Positions 56-59,931 of a stretch of 59,931 nucleotides of DNA are shown here, piece after piece (the stretch's first letter is position 1; every line of letters starts with the position of its first letter). Source of the DNA: a virus (Duplodnaviria > Caudoviricetes). Made by a program: the position numbers and the translations under genes. Below the pieces are notes generated by a model. That model searched no databases. It worked only from the letters and a program-made list of their open reading frames with translations, and was not told the DNA's origin. The stretch lies in the IMG/VR virus record IMGVR_UViG_3300036832_000301, positions 1 to 59,931 of that record; one strand, 5' to 3'.

Positions 56-1360
56 ATGTCCCGAGCATGGCCTGCCGACACGGCTGAGCGCAGGTCTGTT
101 GACGCGCTTGTGCCCTACGCCAACAACGCCAGAACACACACGCCAGAGCAGGTCGAGCAGATCGCCCGGTCAATCGAGGCGTGGGGCTGGAAAAACGCCG
201 TTCTCATAGACGAGGCGGGTGGGATCATCGCCGGTCACGGGCGCGTCCTGGCCGCCAAGCACCTGGGTTATACCGACGTCCCGGTGGTGGTCGCGACGGG
301 TTGGACCGAAGCCGAGAAACGCGCCTACGTCATCGCCGACAACCAGCTTGCCCTGGCCGCCGGGTGGGACGAGGACATGCTGCGGGCCGAGCTTGGCGCG
401 CTGGCGGCGGACGGCTTCGCGCTCGACCTGATCGGCTTCGGCGACGATGAGCTCGGGCGGCTGCTGGCCCCGCCGGAAACCGAGGGGCTCACCGACCCCG
501 ACGACGCGCCGGATGTGCCGGATGTGCCGGTCACCGTCGAAGGCGACCTCTGGCTGCTCGGGCGGCACCGGCTGGTCTGCGGCGATTGCACGGTGGCCGA
601 TACGACGCTGCGGGCGATGGGCGATGTCCGCCCGCACCTGATGGTCACCGACCCGCCCTACGGCGTCGAGTACGACGCCGACTGGCGCAACCACGCGCGG
701 CGACCGGACGGGTCGCTGATCGGCGGGCGGGCTATCGGCAAGGTGACCAACGACGAGCGGGCCGACTGGCGCGACGCCTGGGCGCTGTTCCTGGGCGACG
801 TCGCCTATGTCTGGGGTGCGGGGCTGTGCTCGAAGCAGTCGGTCGAGTCGCTTGAGGCGGCGGGCTTCGTCATCCGCGCCCAGCTTATCTGGGCCAAGAA
901 CCAGTTCGTCGTCGGACGCGGCCACTACCACTTCCAGCACGAGCCCTGCTGGTACGCGGTGCGCAAGACCGGCAAGAGCCATTGGCACGGCGATCACACC
1001 CAGTCGTCGCTCTGGCAGATCGACAAGCCGCGCCGCTCGGAGACCGGGCACAGCACGCAGAAGCCGGTCGAGTGCATGAAGCGGCCCATCGAGAACAATA
1101 GCAGCCCCGGTCAGGCGGTCTATGAGCCGTTCAGCGGCTCGGGCACCACGATCATCGCCGCCGAGATCACCGCCCGGTCCTGCCACGCCATCGAGATCGA
1201 CCCCGGCTACTGCGACGTCGCGGTGCAGCGCTGGGAAGCCTTCACCGGCCAGACCGCCACGCTGGACGGCGATGGCCGAACCTTCGCCGAGATCGCCGCC
1301 GAGAGGGTGCCAGATGCAACCCGGACCACCGCCGAAGCCCACGAAGCTCAAACGGCTTGA
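56..1360 (+). CDS. ParB/Srx-domain N6/N4 DNA methyltransferase
   Basis: N-terminal ParB-like region (PYANNARTH, IIAGHGR, IADNQL), catalytic TDPPYGV, HSTQKPV and SAM-binding EPFSGSGTT; typical position before terminase. Confidence 0.92.
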   Translation: MSRAWPADTAERRSVDALVPYANNARTHTPEQVEQIARSIEAWGWKNAVLIDEAGGIIAGHGRVLAAKHLGYTDVPVVVATGWTEAEKRAYVIADNQLALAAGWDEDMLRAELGALAADGFALDLIGFGDDELGRLLAPPETEGLTDPDDAPDVPDVPVTVEGDLWLLGRHRLVCGDCTVADTTLRAMGDVRPHLMVTDPPYGVEYDADWRNHARRPDGSLIGGRAIGKVTNDERADWRDAWALFLGDVAYVWGAGLCSKQSVESLEAAGFVIRAQLIWAKNQFVVGRGHYHFQHEPCWYAVRKTGKSHWHGDHTQSSLWQIDKPRRSETGHSTQKPVECMKRPIENNSSPGQAVYEPFSGSGTTIIAAEITARSCHAIEIDPGYCDVAVQRWEAFTGQTATLDGDGRTFAEIAAERVPDATRTTAEAHEAQTA

Positions 1361-54426: not shown

Positions 54427-54951
54427 GTGCTGCACCTTGCAAAGTCGCTCGCCGTCACGGCGGCGGTCGCTGTCCTGGCTTTCGCCGTTCCCACCGCTGC
54501 CGCGACATTCCTCGATGAAGCTGGCCCGGCTTCGGACGGCTCGCTGTCGTGGGACCTGGGGAACGACGGCGGTATCCCGCTCGGCGCATTCACCGACGAC
54601 TTCATGCTGACGTTGCCCGCGACCGGCTTCACCGCCGCCGGGGTCGAGGCGACCTTCACGTCGAGCACCAACGATCTCACCTTCTCGCTGGTCACGCTGG
54701 GCGGCCTAAAATTCAAGCTGTTCGATGAGCCGAGCGAGCACCTCGGCACGTTCCCCGCGCATATCTTCGCTGGCGGCCCGATCCTGCTCGAAGTGAAAGG
54801 CACCAGCCCCGGCCCGGCGGCCAGCTACGACGGGCATGTGACGTTCTCGCCGGTCGCGGTTCCTGAGCCGGTCACTTGGGCGCTGATGGTCTTCGGTTTC
54901 GGCGCGGCTGGCGCGATGCTTCGGCGTCGGCGCTCGACCGTCTCGGCCTAG
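54427..54951 (+). CDS. FxDxF-type PEP-CTERM (PEPxxWA) exosortase substrate
   Basis: Signal peptide, FTDDF, C-terminal VPEPVTWALMVFGFGAAGAMLRRRR. Confidence 0.88.
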   Translation: MLHLAKSLAVTAAVAVLAFAVPTAAATFLDEAGPASDGSLSWDLGNDGGIPLGAFTDDFMLTLPATGFTAAGVEATFTSSTNDLTFSLVTLGGLKFKLFDEPSEHLGTFPAHIFAGGPILLEVKGTSPGPAASYDGHVTFSPVAVPEPVTWALMVFGFGAAGAMLRRRRSTVSA

Positions 54952-55449
54952 GCGTCGGCACCCGCCATAGCGACGCGGATGCGGTGAAGGACGAACCAAG
55001 CCGACTTCTGAGTGATGCCGGTCGCGCGGGCCAGCTCGTAGCTCGAAATGCCGTTCTTGCAGTTGGCAACGCTCCAGATCGCGACGAACCACACGTCCAG
55101 CGGAAGCGCGCTGTCCTCGAAGATGGAGCCGGTCTTGACCGTGAACTGGCGCTTGCAGACCTTGCCCTCGGCGTCCTTGGCCTTGCACTCGAAAAGGCGG
55201 CGCGGGGTTTCAACGCCGGTCTTGCGGTTCTTGCTGGTCGCCACGAAATAGCGAACCTCGCCGCAGACGCCGCAGGCCGGGCAATGAACGCCATCTGGCC
55301 AACGCAGCTTTACAGCCAGGTCGTGGGTGCGCTCCGCGTCGGCGAAATACCGCACCGCTTCCATCAGCGTCTTGGGTTGGGCGGGGGCTGCGGTTTCCAT
55401 GCGCCCAAGGTAGGCGCGGGAGCTTACTGCGTCAAGTCAATTATTACCC
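54948..55449 (-). mobile_element. Truncated IS1595-family element (Zn-ribbon + HTH only; no DDE domain)
   Basis: ORF 54948-55400: RWPDG..CP.C, C..C.RQFTV.TG.IFE, GISS.EL...G.TQKSAWF..HRIR; IR-like GGGTAATAATTGACTTGAC upstream. Confidence 0.75.
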
Positions 55450-55849
55450 CAGGATGTCGGGAACGCGCTCACGCGGGCACCGCCGCCATCCCGGCGCGCA
55501 TTCGCTCGACGAAGTAGGCGCGGAGCGGCGCGTTGAGCAGGAGCTCCTCGCGCATCGCGGCCTTGGTCATCTCGACCTTCCTGGCGAACACTTCGAGGGT
55601 GACATCGCCAGGGACGGTGGCGAGGAGGGCGAGGAAGTCTTGCATCGAAGGTAGCCTTTCGGGCTTTGCGCGCTGGCTGGATTGCCGCGCTGCTGTTTGC
55701 GTTATGGGGACTGTATGCACCACTGCACGCAGCGCTGCAAGCGCATGTTGGCATATGCGACATTCTGTCTGTGTGTGTACGATTGTGCTTGCGTCCTTGT
55801 GTGCATTCGCTAAAACCGCATCAACAACAACCGAACAGCGACGAGACAC

Positions 55850-56092
55850 ATGGCCCTCATCACCCTCAACCGCCGCAGCTACTTTATCGACTGCGACACC
55901 ATCGAGATCACCCCGGTCAGTAATGGCCGCTGGTCGGTCACCTACGACCGCAGCACATTCCTCGTCGTTGGCGGGGTCAAATCCGGCGGCGCAGCGCACG
56001 AGTGGTTCTGCCACCACCCGCTGTTCTACGGCGACGCCTGGGTGCCCTGCGGCAGTATGGTGCAGGCGATCAAGCTCGGGGTGCAATACTGA
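55850..56092 (+). CDS. Hypothetical protein after plus-strand promoter cassette
   Basis: GAGACACATG start context. Confidence 0.6.
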   Translation: MALITLNRRSYFIDCDTIEITPVSNGRWSVTYDRSTFLVVGGVKSGGAAHEWFCHHPLFYGDAWVPCGSMVQAIKLGVQY

Positions 56093-56352
56093 TGAGCCAG
56101 CACCCGCACCCCGGCGACACGCGCTACATCGGCAAGGCGACGCCGAAGGGCGTGGTGATCAAGGCGCTCAGCCGGGGCGAATGCCTCGGCACCTACTTCG
56201 TGGCGATCAGCCAAGGCGGCGACAAGATCGGCGAGCCGAAGCGCCTGCCGGGCTTCGAGCCGGTCATCGGCGAGGAAGCCGAGGCGGTGCTGTTTATGGC
56301 CCGCCGGTCGTTCAACAGGCTCAACGCAGGCGACATCGCCCAATGGGATTGA
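56092..56352 (+). CDS. Hypothetical protein
   Basis: TGATG coupling to upstream gene. Confidence 0.55.
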   Translation: MSQHPHPGDTRYIGKATPKGVVIKALSRGECLGTYFVAISQGGDKIGEPKRLPGFEPVIGEEAEAVLFMARRSFNRLNAGDIAQWD

Positions 56353-56387
56353 AACCTGCTAAACTCCCCGCCGTCGTTGAACACCTT

Positions 56388-56414
56388 GACCCTGCTTCGG
56401 CGGGGTCTCTTTTT
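56388..56414 (+). terminator. Intrinsic terminator
   Basis: GACCCTGC-TTCG-GCGGGGTC hairpin followed by TCTTTTT. Confidence 0.75.
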
Positions 56415-56429
56415 GCGCTATAGAGCGGA

Positions 56430-56978
56430 ATGGCCCGCCGCAAACACAAGCCAGCCGACCCGCAGGACATCGCCCGTCGACGCGCCGAGCGGGATGCCAA
56501 CGAGATCGAGATCAGACGCTTGCGCGATCACGGCGCGGTGGTCAGCCTGGATCGGGCGCGCAGGATCACCACGGCCTATCGCGCCAGCCCGTTCCGCAAG
56601 CTGCTCGACACCAAGACCATCACCACCACCCAGAGCGCCGCCGCCGAACGCCTCTGCCAGGACTGGGCCGAGTGGAAGGGTCTGGACGGCAAGCCACCGC
56701 CGACCGGCATCCCGAACCCGCATCCGTCGCAGAGCACCGCCTTGGTGACGGATCGGATGTTGCGCGGCGGTCAGCGCATCGCTCAGGCGCTCGGCGCGGT
56801 CGGTCCGGTCGACCGCGAGCTCTTAGGCGCAATGGCCGCCGCTGCGGTTGAGGAAGATTGCCCGATCCCCTGGCGCGACATCGTACGCCGGATCACGGGT
56901 GTCACGCAGACCGTCAGGCAGTCGCAAACCGTCGCGAATGCGCTCGCGAATTTGGTGGGCGCTTATCACTTGAGGTAG
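56430..56978 (+). CDS. Putative late-transcription regulator-like protein
   Basis: Q..AAERL..DW...ALG.VG...L..L...Y pattern and position before HNH/terminase. Confidence 0.45.
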   Translation: MARRKHKPADPQDIARRRAERDANEIEIRRLRDHGAVVSLDRARRITTAYRASPFRKLLDTKTITTTQSAAAERLCQDWAEWKGLDGKPPPTGIPNPHPSQSTALVTDRMLRGGQRIAQALGAVGPVDRELLGAMAAAAVEEDCPIPWRDIVRRITGVTQTVRQSQTVANALANLVGAYHLR

Positions 56979-56983
56979 GCGAC

Positions 56984-57012
56984 GGGCCGCCAGCGAAGCC
57001 CACTGACGGCCC
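56984..57012 (-). terminator. Hairpin at the 3-prime end of the pentamer array
   Basis: Minus-strand GGGCCGUCAG/CUGGCGGCCC 10-bp stem with a G-U pair (a C-A mismatch on the plus strand); no clear U-tract. Confidence 0.5.
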
Positions 57013-57031
57013 CTTGGCGACCTCGGCGCTA

Positions 57032-58115
57032 CTACCCTAGCCGAACCGGCCCAGCCTCACCCAACCACGACGAGCCACACCGTGCCCTGCCACGCCGAAC
57101 CCGGCCATGCCAGCCGCACCGCGCCGGGCCTAACCGTGCAACACCGCGCAACGCCTTGCCTGCCCAACCGAGCCTGACCGCGCCGGGCCATTCCAAGCCT
57201 TGCCTTGCCTGCCGCGCCGCGCCTGACCCGGAGCAACCCCGCCTGACCACGACGGGCCGCGCCACGCCAGCCAGACCTTGCCAAGCCGCACCCGGCTCGA
57301 CCTGACCTTGCCTCGCCTGCCTACCTCGCCAGGACACACCTAGCTCAGCCTCGCCAGCCCTGCCGCGCCCCACCTAACCTAGCCCTGCCAGCCAAGCCGT
57401 GCCACGCCATGACCTGCGTCGCCCTGCCTGCCATGCCGGGCCAAAACAGACCTGACCCCGCCTAGCTGAACCTCGCCATGCCTGCCACACCTTGCCATTC
57501 CAAACCGCGCCTGACCGCACCTTGCCGCGCCGCGCAATGCCTCGCCTGCCAAACCCCGCCTCGCCATGCCCAGCAGCACCGAGCCCCGCTGGGCCTAGCC
57601 TGCCGTGCCCTGCGTTGCCGTGCCTACCATGCCAGACCCCTGCCACGCCTGCCGCGCCGAGCCATGCCCAGCCCCACCGGACCGCGCGATGACACACCGG
57701 GCCTGCCATACCGCACCTTGCGACACCGAACCCCGACCCGCCTAAACAAGCCGTGCCTGCCGCGCCCTGCCCACGCTCGACCTTGCCACACCGCGCTCAG
57801 CCATGCCTGCCGCACCGGGCCGCGCCTCGCCAGACATCGCCATGCCGTGACCCGCCCTGCCAGCCATGCCCTGACCTGCCCCACGTCACCACGTCTGCCA
57901 TGCCGGGCCTGACTCTGCCTGACCCAGCCTCGCCCCACCATGCCTGCCGGGCCGGGCCAAGCCTTGCCTAGCCCTTCCGCGCCGAGCCATGCCAGCCAGA
58001 CCCTACCTGACCTCACATCGCCATGCCCTGCCACACCAAGCCCATCCCCGCCTCGCCTGCCTCACCTTGCTCTGCCTGACCCTGACACGCCTCGCCAAAC
58101 CCAATCTCGCCTCGG
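57032..58115 (-). repeat. GGY-NN pentamer array, about 21 units; putative guide-RNA array
   Basis: Plus strand reads NN-RCC with 5-nt period for over 1 kb; 4-nt TGCC/AGCC phase breaks mostly 49-64 nt apart; no credible ORF; begins at the stop codon of 58116-58640. Confidence 0.85.
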
Positions 58116-58640
58116 CTAAGCCGGTTCGGGTTTAAGCTCGGTTTCGAGCCGCGCGAGTTCCAAGGCCGCGACGGTTTCGTCAATCGCGCCATTGACCCGT
58201 GCGAGCTCGATAAGGTCGCTATATCGCCGTCGCCAGGAATTGAGCTCGCCGAGCGCCCGGCTGAGCAGCCCATGCACGACCTGCGCGTCGCTCGCCGCCC
58301 ATTGCACCCCGGCGTAACCCTGCTCGCCGCCCACGGTGACGATGTTGACGAAGGCGCGCACCCCGTCCCTGATCTCGCCGTCCTTGGTGATGATCTCGAC
58401 TTCAAGCTGCTGCACCACCGCGCGCGCCTGCTCGACCCGATAGGCCGCGCCAGCTACCGCGTCATCCCATTCGAACAACGGATGCAGCGGTGAGCTCGCG
58501 GGCTTCGCCGCCTCGACGATTTCCGGCGGATGCAGCAGCCCGTTCCCGGCCAGGGCTTCGAGCGCTTCGCCGATGGTCTGCGGATCGGTCCCATAACGAT
58601 GGGCTCCGGGTCGCCAGAAATAGGTTGTGCGGCTGGTCAT
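58116..58640 (-). CDS. Partner protein of the Cas7-like gene
   Basis: ATG at 58640 overlaps upstream stop; SPLHPLFEWDD...YRVEQAR motif. Confidence 0.75.
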   Translation of the reverse strand: MTSRTTYFWRPGAHRYGTDPQTIGEALEALAGNGLLHPPEIVEAAKPASSPLHPLFEWDDAVAGAAYRVEQARAVVQQLEVEIITKDGEIRDGVRAFVNIVTVGGEQGYAGVQWAASDAQVVHGLLSRALGELNSWRRRYSDLIELARVNGAIDETVAALELARLETELKPEPA

Positions 58641-59278
58641 CGGCTCGGCACCTTCTCGTTGGACTTGGCGACATGGAAGCGACCGAAAGGCCCGTTGCGC
58701 TGCGGACGCCAATCGCCGATCCCTACCGCGAAACCGGCCAGATCGAACAGGCTGATGACCTGCTCAGGCGAGATCGCCGAGGTGTTGACCTTGACCGTCA
58801 GGATCGCGCCCCAAGGGTTGAATTCAGGGCGATAGCGCAGATCGGCGACCCCCATTCCGACCCGCGCGATGTCTTCGCGCATCGACGGTGGCGGACCGCT
58901 GATCTCGACGAATTCGCCGACGATGTGGAACGCCTGCCGCGCCGCCACCTTGGTCATCCCGGCCACCGACGTCACCGCGTCGACCGCCGCGCTCTTGAAG
59001 CCCACCGCCGGGAAGCCGAACAGCGCCGCCTCGATATCCGCCTCGCTCGGCTTCTTGGGTTTCTCGGTGAGCCAGTAGAGCGCATCGCAGAAGTCGTCCC
59101 ACGGCACCTTGGCGTCGCGGCCTTTCGCGCCCTTGCGCTGCTGCTTGGCCGCCATCTGCTCCTTGGCCTTCTGCGACCACGCATGCACGATCAGCGGGCT
59201 GTCGCCGATGATCGGCACCTCGATGGTCTCCACCTGTAGGCGCGGAAGCTCTAAGACGTTGGTGGTGCTCGCAGCCAT
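58637..59278 (-). CDS. Cas7/RAMP-like RNA-binding protein
   Basis: N-terminal IIGDSPLIVH strand, FPAVGFKSA, RYRPEF..W and C-terminal glycine loop GIGDWRP...GPFGRF; AGGAG RBS. Confidence 0.72.
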   Translation of the reverse strand: MAASTTNVLELPRLQVETIEVPIIGDSPLIVHAWSQKAKEQMAAKQQRKGAKGRDAKVPWDDFCDALYWLTEKPKKPSEADIEAALFGFPAVGFKSAAVDAVTSVAGMTKVAARQAFHIVGEFVEISGPPPSMREDIARVGMGVADLRYRPEFNPWGAILTVKVNTSAISPEQVISLFDLAGFAVGIGDWRPQRNGPFGRFHVAKSNEKVPSR

Positions 59279-59320
59279 GTGCCTTCTCCTGTTGCTCTAT
59301 ACAGCCCTACCCCCTAGGCA

Positions 59321-59349
59321 ATTAGCCGACTCACTCACATATCTGTCAA
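59321..59349 (-). promoter_or_regulatory. Sigma70-type promoter for the Cas7-like operon
   Basis: Minus strand TTGACA-N17-GCTAAT; GANTC site in the spacer. Confidence 0.55.
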
Positions 59350-59442
59350 CGCCGCTGTATGGTGGCCTGTGTGCAGGGTGGACGCTACGGGTGGTGTTGC
59401 AAGACCCTTGCACCCCTATAGGTATAGGCGGATAACTTGGTT

Positions 59443-59760
59443 ATGGGGCAGCGACCGCGCCCATCCGACCGGACGCCAGAGGTCGCGGCCTATCAGCGAT
59501 GGTACTGGACGCCGCGCTGGCGTCGTAAGTCGCACGATCAACTGATTGCGCATCCGTTCTGCGCCTACTGCCTGCGCGACGAAGGTGTGTTCACCGCCGC
59601 GACGATCTCCGATCACGTCATCCCGCATCGAGGTAACGCACATCTGTTCTGGCACGGCGAATTGCAGAGCTTGTGCAAGCCGCACCACGACGGCGATAAG
59701 CGGCGCGAGGAACAGATGATGCAGCCCGAGCGCTGCGATGCGGATGGATGGCCGGTGTGA
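59443..59760 (+). CDS. HNH endonuclease (terminase-associated)
   Basis: PFCAYC...DHVIPHRG...LQSLCKPHH..K; adjacent to packaging genes on circularisation. Confidence 0.88.
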   Translation: MGQRPRPSDRTPEVAAYQRWYWTPRWRRKSHDQLIAHPFCAYCLRDEGVFTAATISDHVIPHRGNAHLFWHGELQSLCKPHHDGDKRREEQMMQPERCDADGWPV

Positions 59761-59931
59761 GCGGATACGAGCTTCGGCGCGCGCTGATCCTGCTCAGCTA
59801 CTACGTCGCCGCCCTGGTGATCGGCTTCCTGATCGGACGTTACGCGCCGTTCTGATCCGCCAGCCTCGGCCTCGACCGGCGGGCTGCATGGCGGGGGGAT
59901 ACCTCAGTCTGCGCGTCGCGTTTCAAATCAA

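Follow-up and report, generated by a model that had tools for sequence, protein, structure and literature searches.

The pentanucleotide array at positions 57032-58115 of the phage contig studied here very probably stores the guides of a phage VIPR system and has the architecture described as 'staggered'. Arrays of this kind are already in print, and the contig, whose full 59,931 bases we refer to as the window, is a large new example with ~21 guides in 1.1 kb. We further propose, as a tentative reading, that a single missing base may act here as the whole punctuation mark, in that a 4-nt step among the pentamers may suffice to stop one Vipr filament and let another begin.

VIPR systems have been described in 2026 preprints (10.64898/2026.04.26.720920, 10.64898/2026.04.26.720927, 10.64898/2026.10.15.759431). 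In the available text of these, Vipr is a minimal RAMP protein (RRM core, G-loop and thumb) that polymerises on GGY/NN vrRNA with one protomer per repeat (10.64898/2026.04.26.720920, 10.64898/2026.04.26.720927), and the NN bases of the vrRNA read dsDNA with one base skipped per dinucleotide (10.64898/2026.04.26.720920). The natural targets given in the sections at hand comprise competing phages and satellites as well as other VIPR systems, and seven types are distinguished (10.64898/2026.04.26.720920). Among the array architectures are 'staggered arrays with overlapping vrRNAs', the overlap being 1 nt according to the legend of Fig. S18 (10.64898/2026.04.26.720920). Confirmation by sRNA-seq is stated for the ribozyme-interspersed and single-vrRNA architectures, and on this point the accessible main text is silent about the staggered one (10.64898/2026.04.26.720920).

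Genomic context and the Vipr homologue

The window is a whole-phage contig with genes for terminase, head, portal, tape measure, tail fibre, integrase and primase-helicase. The only public sequencing run that contains this DNA is a soil metagenome DNA run. The array sits between convergent genes, and on the minus strand the order is vipr, vap and array, with the array starting at the stop codon of the vap-like gene and running from 58115 downward (Table 1). A G+C-rich hairpin that is a candidate terminator (z -1.82, alone not significant) lies immediately 3' of the array, a short way beyond the stop (56978) of the convergent plus-strand gene. A promoter and terminator consensus scan of the locus gave no match, and Pfam searches of eight neighbouring ORFs returned only an IS1595 zinc ribbon that is unrelated to the array. 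No second array was found elsewhere in the 59,931-base contig.

When compared with SUSP1 Vipr (PDB 36pp_D) using phmmer, the window's 213-aa protein matched at E 5e-5, with the similarity restricted to residues 142-204. In the HMMER alignment, R150 of the window protein corresponds to the SUSP1 thumb residue R138, and D189-W190-R191 to the G-loop D177-W178-R179; R138 and D177-W178-R179 are named as GG-binding residues in the available part of the SUSP1 report (10.64898/2026.04.26.720927). R150, W190 and R191 are invariant across 24 homologues of the window protein, as is H32; the N-terminal H17 of SUSP1 falls outside the HMMER alignment. An AlphaFold model (pLDDT 77) submitted to Foldseek recovered Cas7, Csm3, Cmr6 and Cas7-11 RAMPs, with 20 matches at E<=1e-3. 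Judged by sequence similarity and predicted structure, the 213-aa product is a homologue of SUSP1 Vipr that is modelled to fold like Cas7-type RAMPs. It shares 40% identity with UmaThurman gp39 (E 1e-47) and 39% with Quico gp57 (E 4e-36), and the genes of both abut GGYNN arrays. Before the match to SUSP1 Vipr, the array had been considered as an RNA bound by a TRAP-like ring, as a G-quadruplex or R-loop tract, and as a pac site for terminase binding; these three ideas were then dropped.

With regard to the accessory gene, tblastn detected a vap homologue in 142 of the 165 sequences searched. Pfam gave no match for Vap and two actinophage neighbours. The model of Vap is confident (pLDDT 91), yet its best PDB fold match reached E 0.46, and a sequence profile search of the PDB only E 0.14-0.16.

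Lattice and phase breaks of the array

The plus strand of the 1084-nt array is C-rich (C 526, G 246, A 176, T 136). Base autocorrelation over 57032-58115 was 0.514 at lag 5, compared with 0.227-0.230 at lags 2-3. At longer range the maxima were found at lag 49 (0.504) and lag 54 (0.517), with values of only 0.329 at lag 50 and 0.317 at lag 55, as would be expected from a phase slip of -1 per 10-11 pentamers. Read on the minus strand, the logo of the 143 inner pentamers is G 0.87, G 0.92 and C 0.67/T 0.30 (Y.97), followed by two N positions of 0.06 and 0.00 bit. The logo bears out the expectation of three fixed and two variable positions.

The original prediction had placed 20 phase breaks. We parsed the array by dynamic programming, blind to those coordinates, rewarding units that end in RCC and penalising lengths other than five, and 20 of the 20 breaks were recovered as 4-mers, 14 of them GGCA and 6 GGCT (positions in Table 1). 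The array therefore contains 20 slips of -1, one per boundary, as in a staggered array. Beyond the earlier list, the parse revealed TACC (GGTA in the RNA sense) at 57322 and 57625, 6-mers at 57639 and 57772, and one GGCC; a terminal GGC completes the non-pentamer elements. Six units hold 10 pentamers, five hold 9, four hold 6, three hold 12, and single units hold 7 and 11, in addition to two degenerate units. This agrees with the predicted range of 6-12 pentamers, mostly 9-10. An Rfam search (E<=1) of 55500-59931 returned only a chance-level Ysr49 row.

The NN dinucleotides of the array have an entropy of 3.88 of 4 bits. Among the 20 units of at least 6 pentamers, the highest pairwise NN identity was 0.667, compared with a shuffle mean of 0.698, and 185 of 200 shuffles reached the observed value. 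Since NN similarity is at shuffle level, no unit is a copy of another. The earlier claim that units share no NN strings and are not low-entropy copies of one another thus held up.

Table 1 Features of the VIPR locus in the window; pentamers and 4-nt steps are given in the RNA sense.
Feature	Position	Strand	Basis
vipr, 213 aa, phrog_4652, predicted RAMP-type RNA-binding protein	58637-59278	-	SUSP1 Vipr PDB match, Foldseek, homologues by arrays
vap-like accessory gene, 174 aa from ATG overlapping vipr stop, phrog_15946	58116-58640	-	position, tblastn homologues
Probable staggered vrRNA array, GGYNN pentamers, ~21 units split by 4-nt steps	57032-58115	-	autocorrelation, parse, logo, NN shuffles
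U02, 10 pentamers, then GGCA 58058-58061	58062-58111	-	parse
U03, 12 pentamers, then GGCT 57994-57997	57998-58057	-	parse
U04, 9 pentamers, then GGCA 57945-57948	57949-57993	-	parse
U05, 9 pentamers, then GGCA 57896-57899	57900-57944	-	parse
U06, 6 pentamers, then GGCT 57862-57865	57866-57895	-	parse
U07, 10 pentamers, then GGCA 57808-57811	57812-57861	-	parse
U08+U09, 6 pentamers, irregular 6-mer 57772-57777, 2 pentamers, then GGCA 57758-57761	57762-57807	-	parse
U10, 10 pentamers, then GGCA 57704-57707	57708-57757	-	parse
U11, 10 pentamers, then GGCA 57650-57653	57654-57703	-	parse
U12-U14, degenerate; 6-mer 57639-57644 and GGTA 57625-57628 cancel in phase; then GGCA 57601-57604	57605-57649	-	parse
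U15, 10 pentamers, then GGCA 57547-57550	57551-57600	-	parse
U16, 12 pentamers, then GGCA 57483-57486	57487-57546	-	parse
U17, 10 pentamers, then GGCA 57429-57432	57433-57482	-	parse
U18, 7 pentamers, then GGCT 57390-57393	57394-57428	-	parse
U19, 6 pentamers, then GGCT 57356-57359	57360-57389	-	parse
U20, 6 pentamers, then two 4-mers, GGTA 57322-57325 and GGCA 57318-57321	57326-57355	-	parse
U21, 9 pentamers, then GGCT 57269-57272	57273-57317	-	parse
U22, 11 pentamers, then GGCA 57210-57213	57214-57268	-	parse
U23, 9 pentamers, then GGCA 57161-57164	57165-57209	-	parse
U24, 9 pentamers, then GGCT 57112-57115	57116-57160	-	parse
U25, 12 pentamers, then GGCC 57048-57051, degenerate tail to ~57010	57052-57111	-	parse
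12-bp G+C-rich hairpin, candidate terminator without U tract (approximate coordinates)	56984-57012	-	fold of 56960-57060

Arrays in related loci

A sensitive blastn search of the region against cultured phages returned 22 Mycobacterium, 2 Gordonia and 1 cyanophage records, with matches confined to the array. The three cultured phages that we inspected carry NNGCC pentamers with TGCC steps, and their neighbouring genes lie on the strand that would give GGYNN RNA. Our search for literature on pentanucleotide repeats in mycobacteriophages gave a single SSR survey, which was not relevant. The set of relatives was built from 80 viral and 73 genomic loci encoding a Vipr relative; adding the window and the three cultured phages brings the total to 157. 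The nearest named hosts of the fetched loci are Caulobacterales-like alphaproteobacteria. A GGYNN array on the vipr strand was present in 128 of the 157 vipr loci (138 arrays on the same strand vs. 1 on the opposite strand), and the vipr-vap-array layout of the window recurs in relatives that include Mycobacterium and Gordonia phages. With 1084 nt and ~21 units, the window array ranks in the top three by length among the 138 collected.

Across the family, unit length peaks at 9-10 pentamers, as estimated from 133 non-identical arrays in which 543 unique units have a 4-mer on either side. Lengths of 8-12 pentamers account for 64% of these units, vs. 17% under a geometric null of the same mean, and a minority of units are very short. 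Elements of lengths other than five, counted in 74 arrays, comprised 515 four-mers, 84 3-mers, 39 6-mers and 12 7-mers. GGCA is by far the commonest 4-mer (513 among the 4-mers listed), and the next pentamer begins GGCA or GGCG in 475 cases; one clade, that of locus L067, has GGCC or GGCT at its breaks in place of GGCA. Gain or loss of whole units, for which the original prediction had pointed to related phages, is seen between the near-identical arrays of L067 and L068. These have 18 identical units in common, and L067 holds four extra whole units, including one duplicate. The 4-mer punctuation is regulated and is not decay.

Target matches and guide boundaries

The NNx target search covered both strands of the 1.99 Mb of fetched loci with the 495 unique units of at least 8 pentamers, alongside three controls in which NN order was shuffled. 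It yielded 64 perfect and 52 one-mismatch hits, compared with 0-1 perfect and 1-4 one-mismatch hits in the controls (2-4 hits in all for each). The hits trace to 17 of the 495 guides at no more than one mismatch, 6 of them perfect, and a single guide from a Sphingomonas soli prophage matches 82 sequences. Because a few guides dominate, the independent evidence amounts to ~6-17 events and not to 116 hits. The relatives' targets are rival vipr genes (in sense or antisense), rival vap genes and each other's prophages, which in the case of L085 and L086 is mutual. In two cases worked by hand from coordinates (L022 to L004 and L118 to L017), the base passed over is the third of its codon, and one guide has targets in L004 and L007 that differ at skipped bases only.

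Pairing is bounded by the 4-mers. Across 12 guide-target pairs it held at 216/222 inside the unit, vs. 4/18 in the unit before and 6/24 in the unit after the 4-mer, both at chance level. In a further test that did not depend on pairs already chosen for a match, 19/1470 windows of eight pentamer units lying inside a unit had perfect targets (control 1), vs. 3/1834 of those straddling a 4-mer (control 1) and 1/1723 when the 4-mer was skipped in straddling windows (control 3), so that straddling windows did no better than the control. The inside vs. straddling comparison gives a Fisher p of 1e-4, which is optimistic since the windows overlap one another. Computation thus shows that both the NNx rule and the guide boundaries at 4-mers hold in the relatives. 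The role of guide boundary that had been suggested for the tetramer is therefore supported computationally, by relatives' guides whose pairing starts and stops at 4-mers. The proposals that the units are guide-sized and that the NN strings are stored information likewise fit the published VIPR model and the targets of the relatives.

With regard to the window's own guides, no match of up to two mismatches and no self-hit was detected in the 1.99 Mb of loci plus the window, and there were 18 matches at three mismatches vs. 96 in five shuffles. Exact scans of viral contigs gave 0 matches each for full-length U11, U07 and U15, and 0 each for nine-NN sub-patterns of U03 and U25. A nine-NN sub-pattern of U16 occurred at 7 loci in viral contigs (best 23/24, L161), six of which belong to one protein family of ~210 aa on contigs of 33-43% G+C. 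This family is without a Pfam match, and the window and related loci contain no homologue of it. We treat the U16 near-matches as one event, possibly due to chance, and do not count them as a target. A sub-pattern of U22 at 1 viral-contig locus (19/22, interrupted in the sense frame by a stop codon) was considered weak and set aside. Metagenome contigs contained neither the full U16 nor ten NN of U25 (0 each), and U16 at up to 3 mismatches was found in 0 of 5 genomes with close relatives and in 0 of 401 genomes of the class. Across the related loci, the viral and metagenome contig scans and these 406 genomes, we found no convincing target for any window guide.

Alternative explanations for the array and its 4-mers

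The strongest competitor accepts the same VIPR array and holds that the 4-mer and its flanks (..GGYNY GGCW GGCRN..) form a sequence-specific endonuclease site, for Vipr, Vap or a host RNase, instead of a passive register break. RAMP relatives such as Cas6 do cleave repeats, and the junctions of the window are more uniform than the lattice around them: the GGs flanking a break are 100% conserved, vs. 87-92% within units, the 4-mer ends in either A or T, a purine occupies the first N past the break in 89% of units, and a pyrimidine the last N ahead of it in 85%. The family-wide preference for GGCA, and for GGCA or GGCG at the start of the next pentamer, points the same way. Such conservation goes beyond what phase needs, so that a sequence-specific cut remains a live rival. 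We nonetheless regard it as somewhat unlikely, given that the L067 clade keeps the 4-nt length and not the sequence (the length is universal), that the first and last NN of units still pair with targets, and that Pfam and PDB searches revealed no nuclease domain in Vap. The passive register break is also preferred to the view that the 4-mers are accidental 1-nt deletions in an array that is one long RNA or a decoy for Vipr-like proteins. The 3-, 6- and 7-mers and very short units among the relatives would agree with accident, but the sharp peak in unit length compared with the geometric null, the conserved junction motif and the bounding of target pairing by 4-mers make this very improbable.

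Two further explanations deny that the array is a guide store. Minus-strand ORFs of 111-136 aa could suggest a protein-coding repeat gene, and public records of Gordonia phage UmaThurman (gp40) and Mycobacterium phage DRBy19 (gp51) give the corresponding region as a CDS. However, a G-rich strand poor in T/A has open frames by composition alone, the period is 5 and not 3 (autocorrelation 0.51 at lag 5 vs. 0.23 at lag 3), and no frame spans the 1084 nt, any reading frame being shifted about every 50 nt by the -1 slips; we consider a coding role extremely improbable. Functionless satellite DNA made by slippage would account for a tandem arrangement with simple fixed positions. It would not be expected to show near-maximal NN entropy with no two units alike, nor the strict linkage in strand and position to vipr, and Tandem Repeats Finder detected nothing in the array beyond short local repeats. 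We therefore give the satellite reading practically no credence, in keeping with the original view that stored information fits better.

Proposed mechanism and implications

In the preferred reading of a staggered VIPR array, the array would most likely share a minus-strand transcript with vipr and vap. Each Vipr protomer would bind one GGY-NN repeat and polymerise along the RNA, as is in print for SUSP1 and is suggested here by homology. The 4-base unit (GGCA or GGCU, then GGC) would set the next GG one base too near, so that the register of the filament could not continue and each stretch of 6-12 pentamers would become its own ribonucleoprotein. A 4-nt step could end the filament in this way because neighbouring protomers would share each GGY. 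As for how the precursor is severed, we favour the possibility that host nucleases trim the RNA left exposed between two out-of-register filaments. Each guide would then present 12-24 variable bases that read dsDNA as NNx NNx, with the skipped third base usually at codon wobble, and its binding would silence a gene belonging to a rival phage or prophage.

If single-base punctuation is true, an array of >20 guides needs no repeat, tail, ribozyme or dedicated nuclease. It would be the most compact division of a guide-RNA precursor known, with guide ends set by protein register and not by an RNA cut site. Among RNA-guided systems VIPR is a newcomer, and the window and 156 related loci give computational evidence for a one-base slip as boundary. 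Cultured phages of Mycobacterium smegmatis and Gordonia, among them the cluster F phages Quico and DRBy19, carry the same architecture without annotation or with a wrong one, and in these it could be tested at the bench. In addition, some guides are directed against conserved core sequence in rival vipr genes, a finding relevant to competition between such systems.

Comparison with known systems

The staggered vrRNA arrays of the VIPR preprint are the closest counterpart, since in the available description they too place GGY/NN pentamers beside vipr (10.64898/2026.04.26.720920). In these arrays one vrRNA's end marks where the next begins. We read GGC-A[G]GC in the window as that overlap, which the figure legend as available matches, and the published 1-nt overlap of staggered vrRNAs is probably the 4-nt step seen here.

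The type II VIPR of SUSP1, so far as its accessible description goes, has in common with the window the G-loop DWR, the thumb Arg, the GGY-NN pentamer, the vipr-vap pair and carriage by a phage, and its 1-nt-skip reading of DNA also holds in the window's clade, as judged from the guides of relatives. It differs in its guides. The SUSP1 vrRNAs described in that text are four in number, ~100 nt long and composed of 9-16 repeats with a conserved ~40-nt 3' pseudoknot tail, whereas the window has ~21 units of 6-12 repeats. The structured 3' tail of type II is absent in the window, where units abut with a 4-mer only, and Rfam gave none. Four window units, with 6 pentamers, lie below the published 9-16 as given in the available text, and two more units are degenerate.

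More distantly, the locus resembles Class 1 CRISPR systems and their Cas7 filaments in the RAMP fold, in one protomer per fixed guide step, in a base-flipping thumb, and in a many-guide array against mobile elements that adjoins the effector gene. The window differs from Class 1 CRISPR in that no 25-40 nt repeats stand between spacers and no Cas6, Cas1 or Cas2 is present. Instead, the bases that carry information are interspersed with those that bind the protein, the target would be read with gaps, and the punctuation appears to consist of a single missing base.

Rival vipr and vap genes as guide targets

A guide in the array of a Sphingomonas soli prophage (L118:11072-11111) encodes the conserved Vipr peptide E-D-I-V-R-V-G-M under the published NNx rule, in which the guide NN dinucleotides read the DNA target and every third base, usually the codon wobble, is skipped. 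In NNx searches this guide matched vipr in 82 of 157 sequences at ≤1 mismatch, including the vipr of the window phage (1 mismatch; 58854-58876, codons 135-142, EDIARVGM). Against the vipr gene of its own locus, it gave no match at ≤1 mismatch. Because the wobble base is skipped in the NNx reading, a single guide can cover very divergent rivals.

The accessory gene vap was matched in the same type of search. A guide at L152:11152-11201 matched the vap gene of 13 loci at ≤1 mismatch, and a guide related to it (L075:7164-7218) matched that of one locus at ≤1 mismatch and six more loci at 20/22 paired NN positions. Given these guide matches, vap, like vipr, is a predicted target of rival systems. 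Perfect matches were also reciprocal between two prophages, one of Hyphobacterium vulgare and the other of an alphaproteobacterial MAG: the guide at L085:11222-11261 matched L086:7354, and the guide at L086:11169-11218 matched L085:9918.

Near-matches involving the window phage

Guide unit U16 of the window array pairs at 21-23 of 24 positions with L161:9785-9810 and with five related viral contigs (33-43% G+C). The matched site lies within a conserved protein of ~210 aa (motif D-I/V-x-A-N-A-Q-A-L-I-N-V), for which we found neither a Pfam family nor a homologue in the window. The near-match is a chance event, or else it points to a target family with G+C-rich members that the collections lack.

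With regard to foreign guides, the portal gene of the window phage (8863-8888) was matched by a guide of locus L043 at 17/18, and its ParB-methyltransferase gene (317-345) by a guide of L038/L040 at 18/20, a score equalled by a shuffled control. Both can be considered only marginal candidate matches.

Genomic setting and comparison with cultured phages

Features of the window phage near the VIPR array and at the contig ends.
Feature	Position	Strand	Remarks
150-aa protein, IS1595-type transposase zinc ribbon	54948-55400	-	Pfam PF12760, E 4e-8; 1.6 kb from array
ParB-domain DNA methyltransferase	56-1360	+	One contig end, near large terminase
HNH endonuclease	59437-59760	+	Other contig end, near large terminase

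A methyltransferase and an HNH endonuclease beside the large terminase are the usual packaging-module neighbourhood. With these genes at the contig ends, the right end of the genome map is where the VIPR locus falls.

We note a second repeat tract on a Dehalococcoidia-associated contig (L047:21-253, equal to L098:21-253). Here successive 4-mers are separated by only 2-3 pentamers (period ~14 nt), unlike the 9-10-pentamer units of other arrays.

In the public entries for cultured actinophages, GGYNN arrays are annotated as hypothetical proteins (UmaThurman gp40, L003:2943-3266; DRBy19 gp51, L001:3031-3195). The corresponding Vipr homologues, present in 33 phage records (27 from Mycobacterium phages, 5 from Gordonia phages and one from Pseudomonas LESphi2), are without exception labelled as hypothetical. 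In the cluster F mycobacteriophages Quico (L002) and DRBy19, the array follows cro and the antirepressor and is located upstream of vipr. In UmaThurman and the alphaproteobacterial clade, its position is downstream of vipr.
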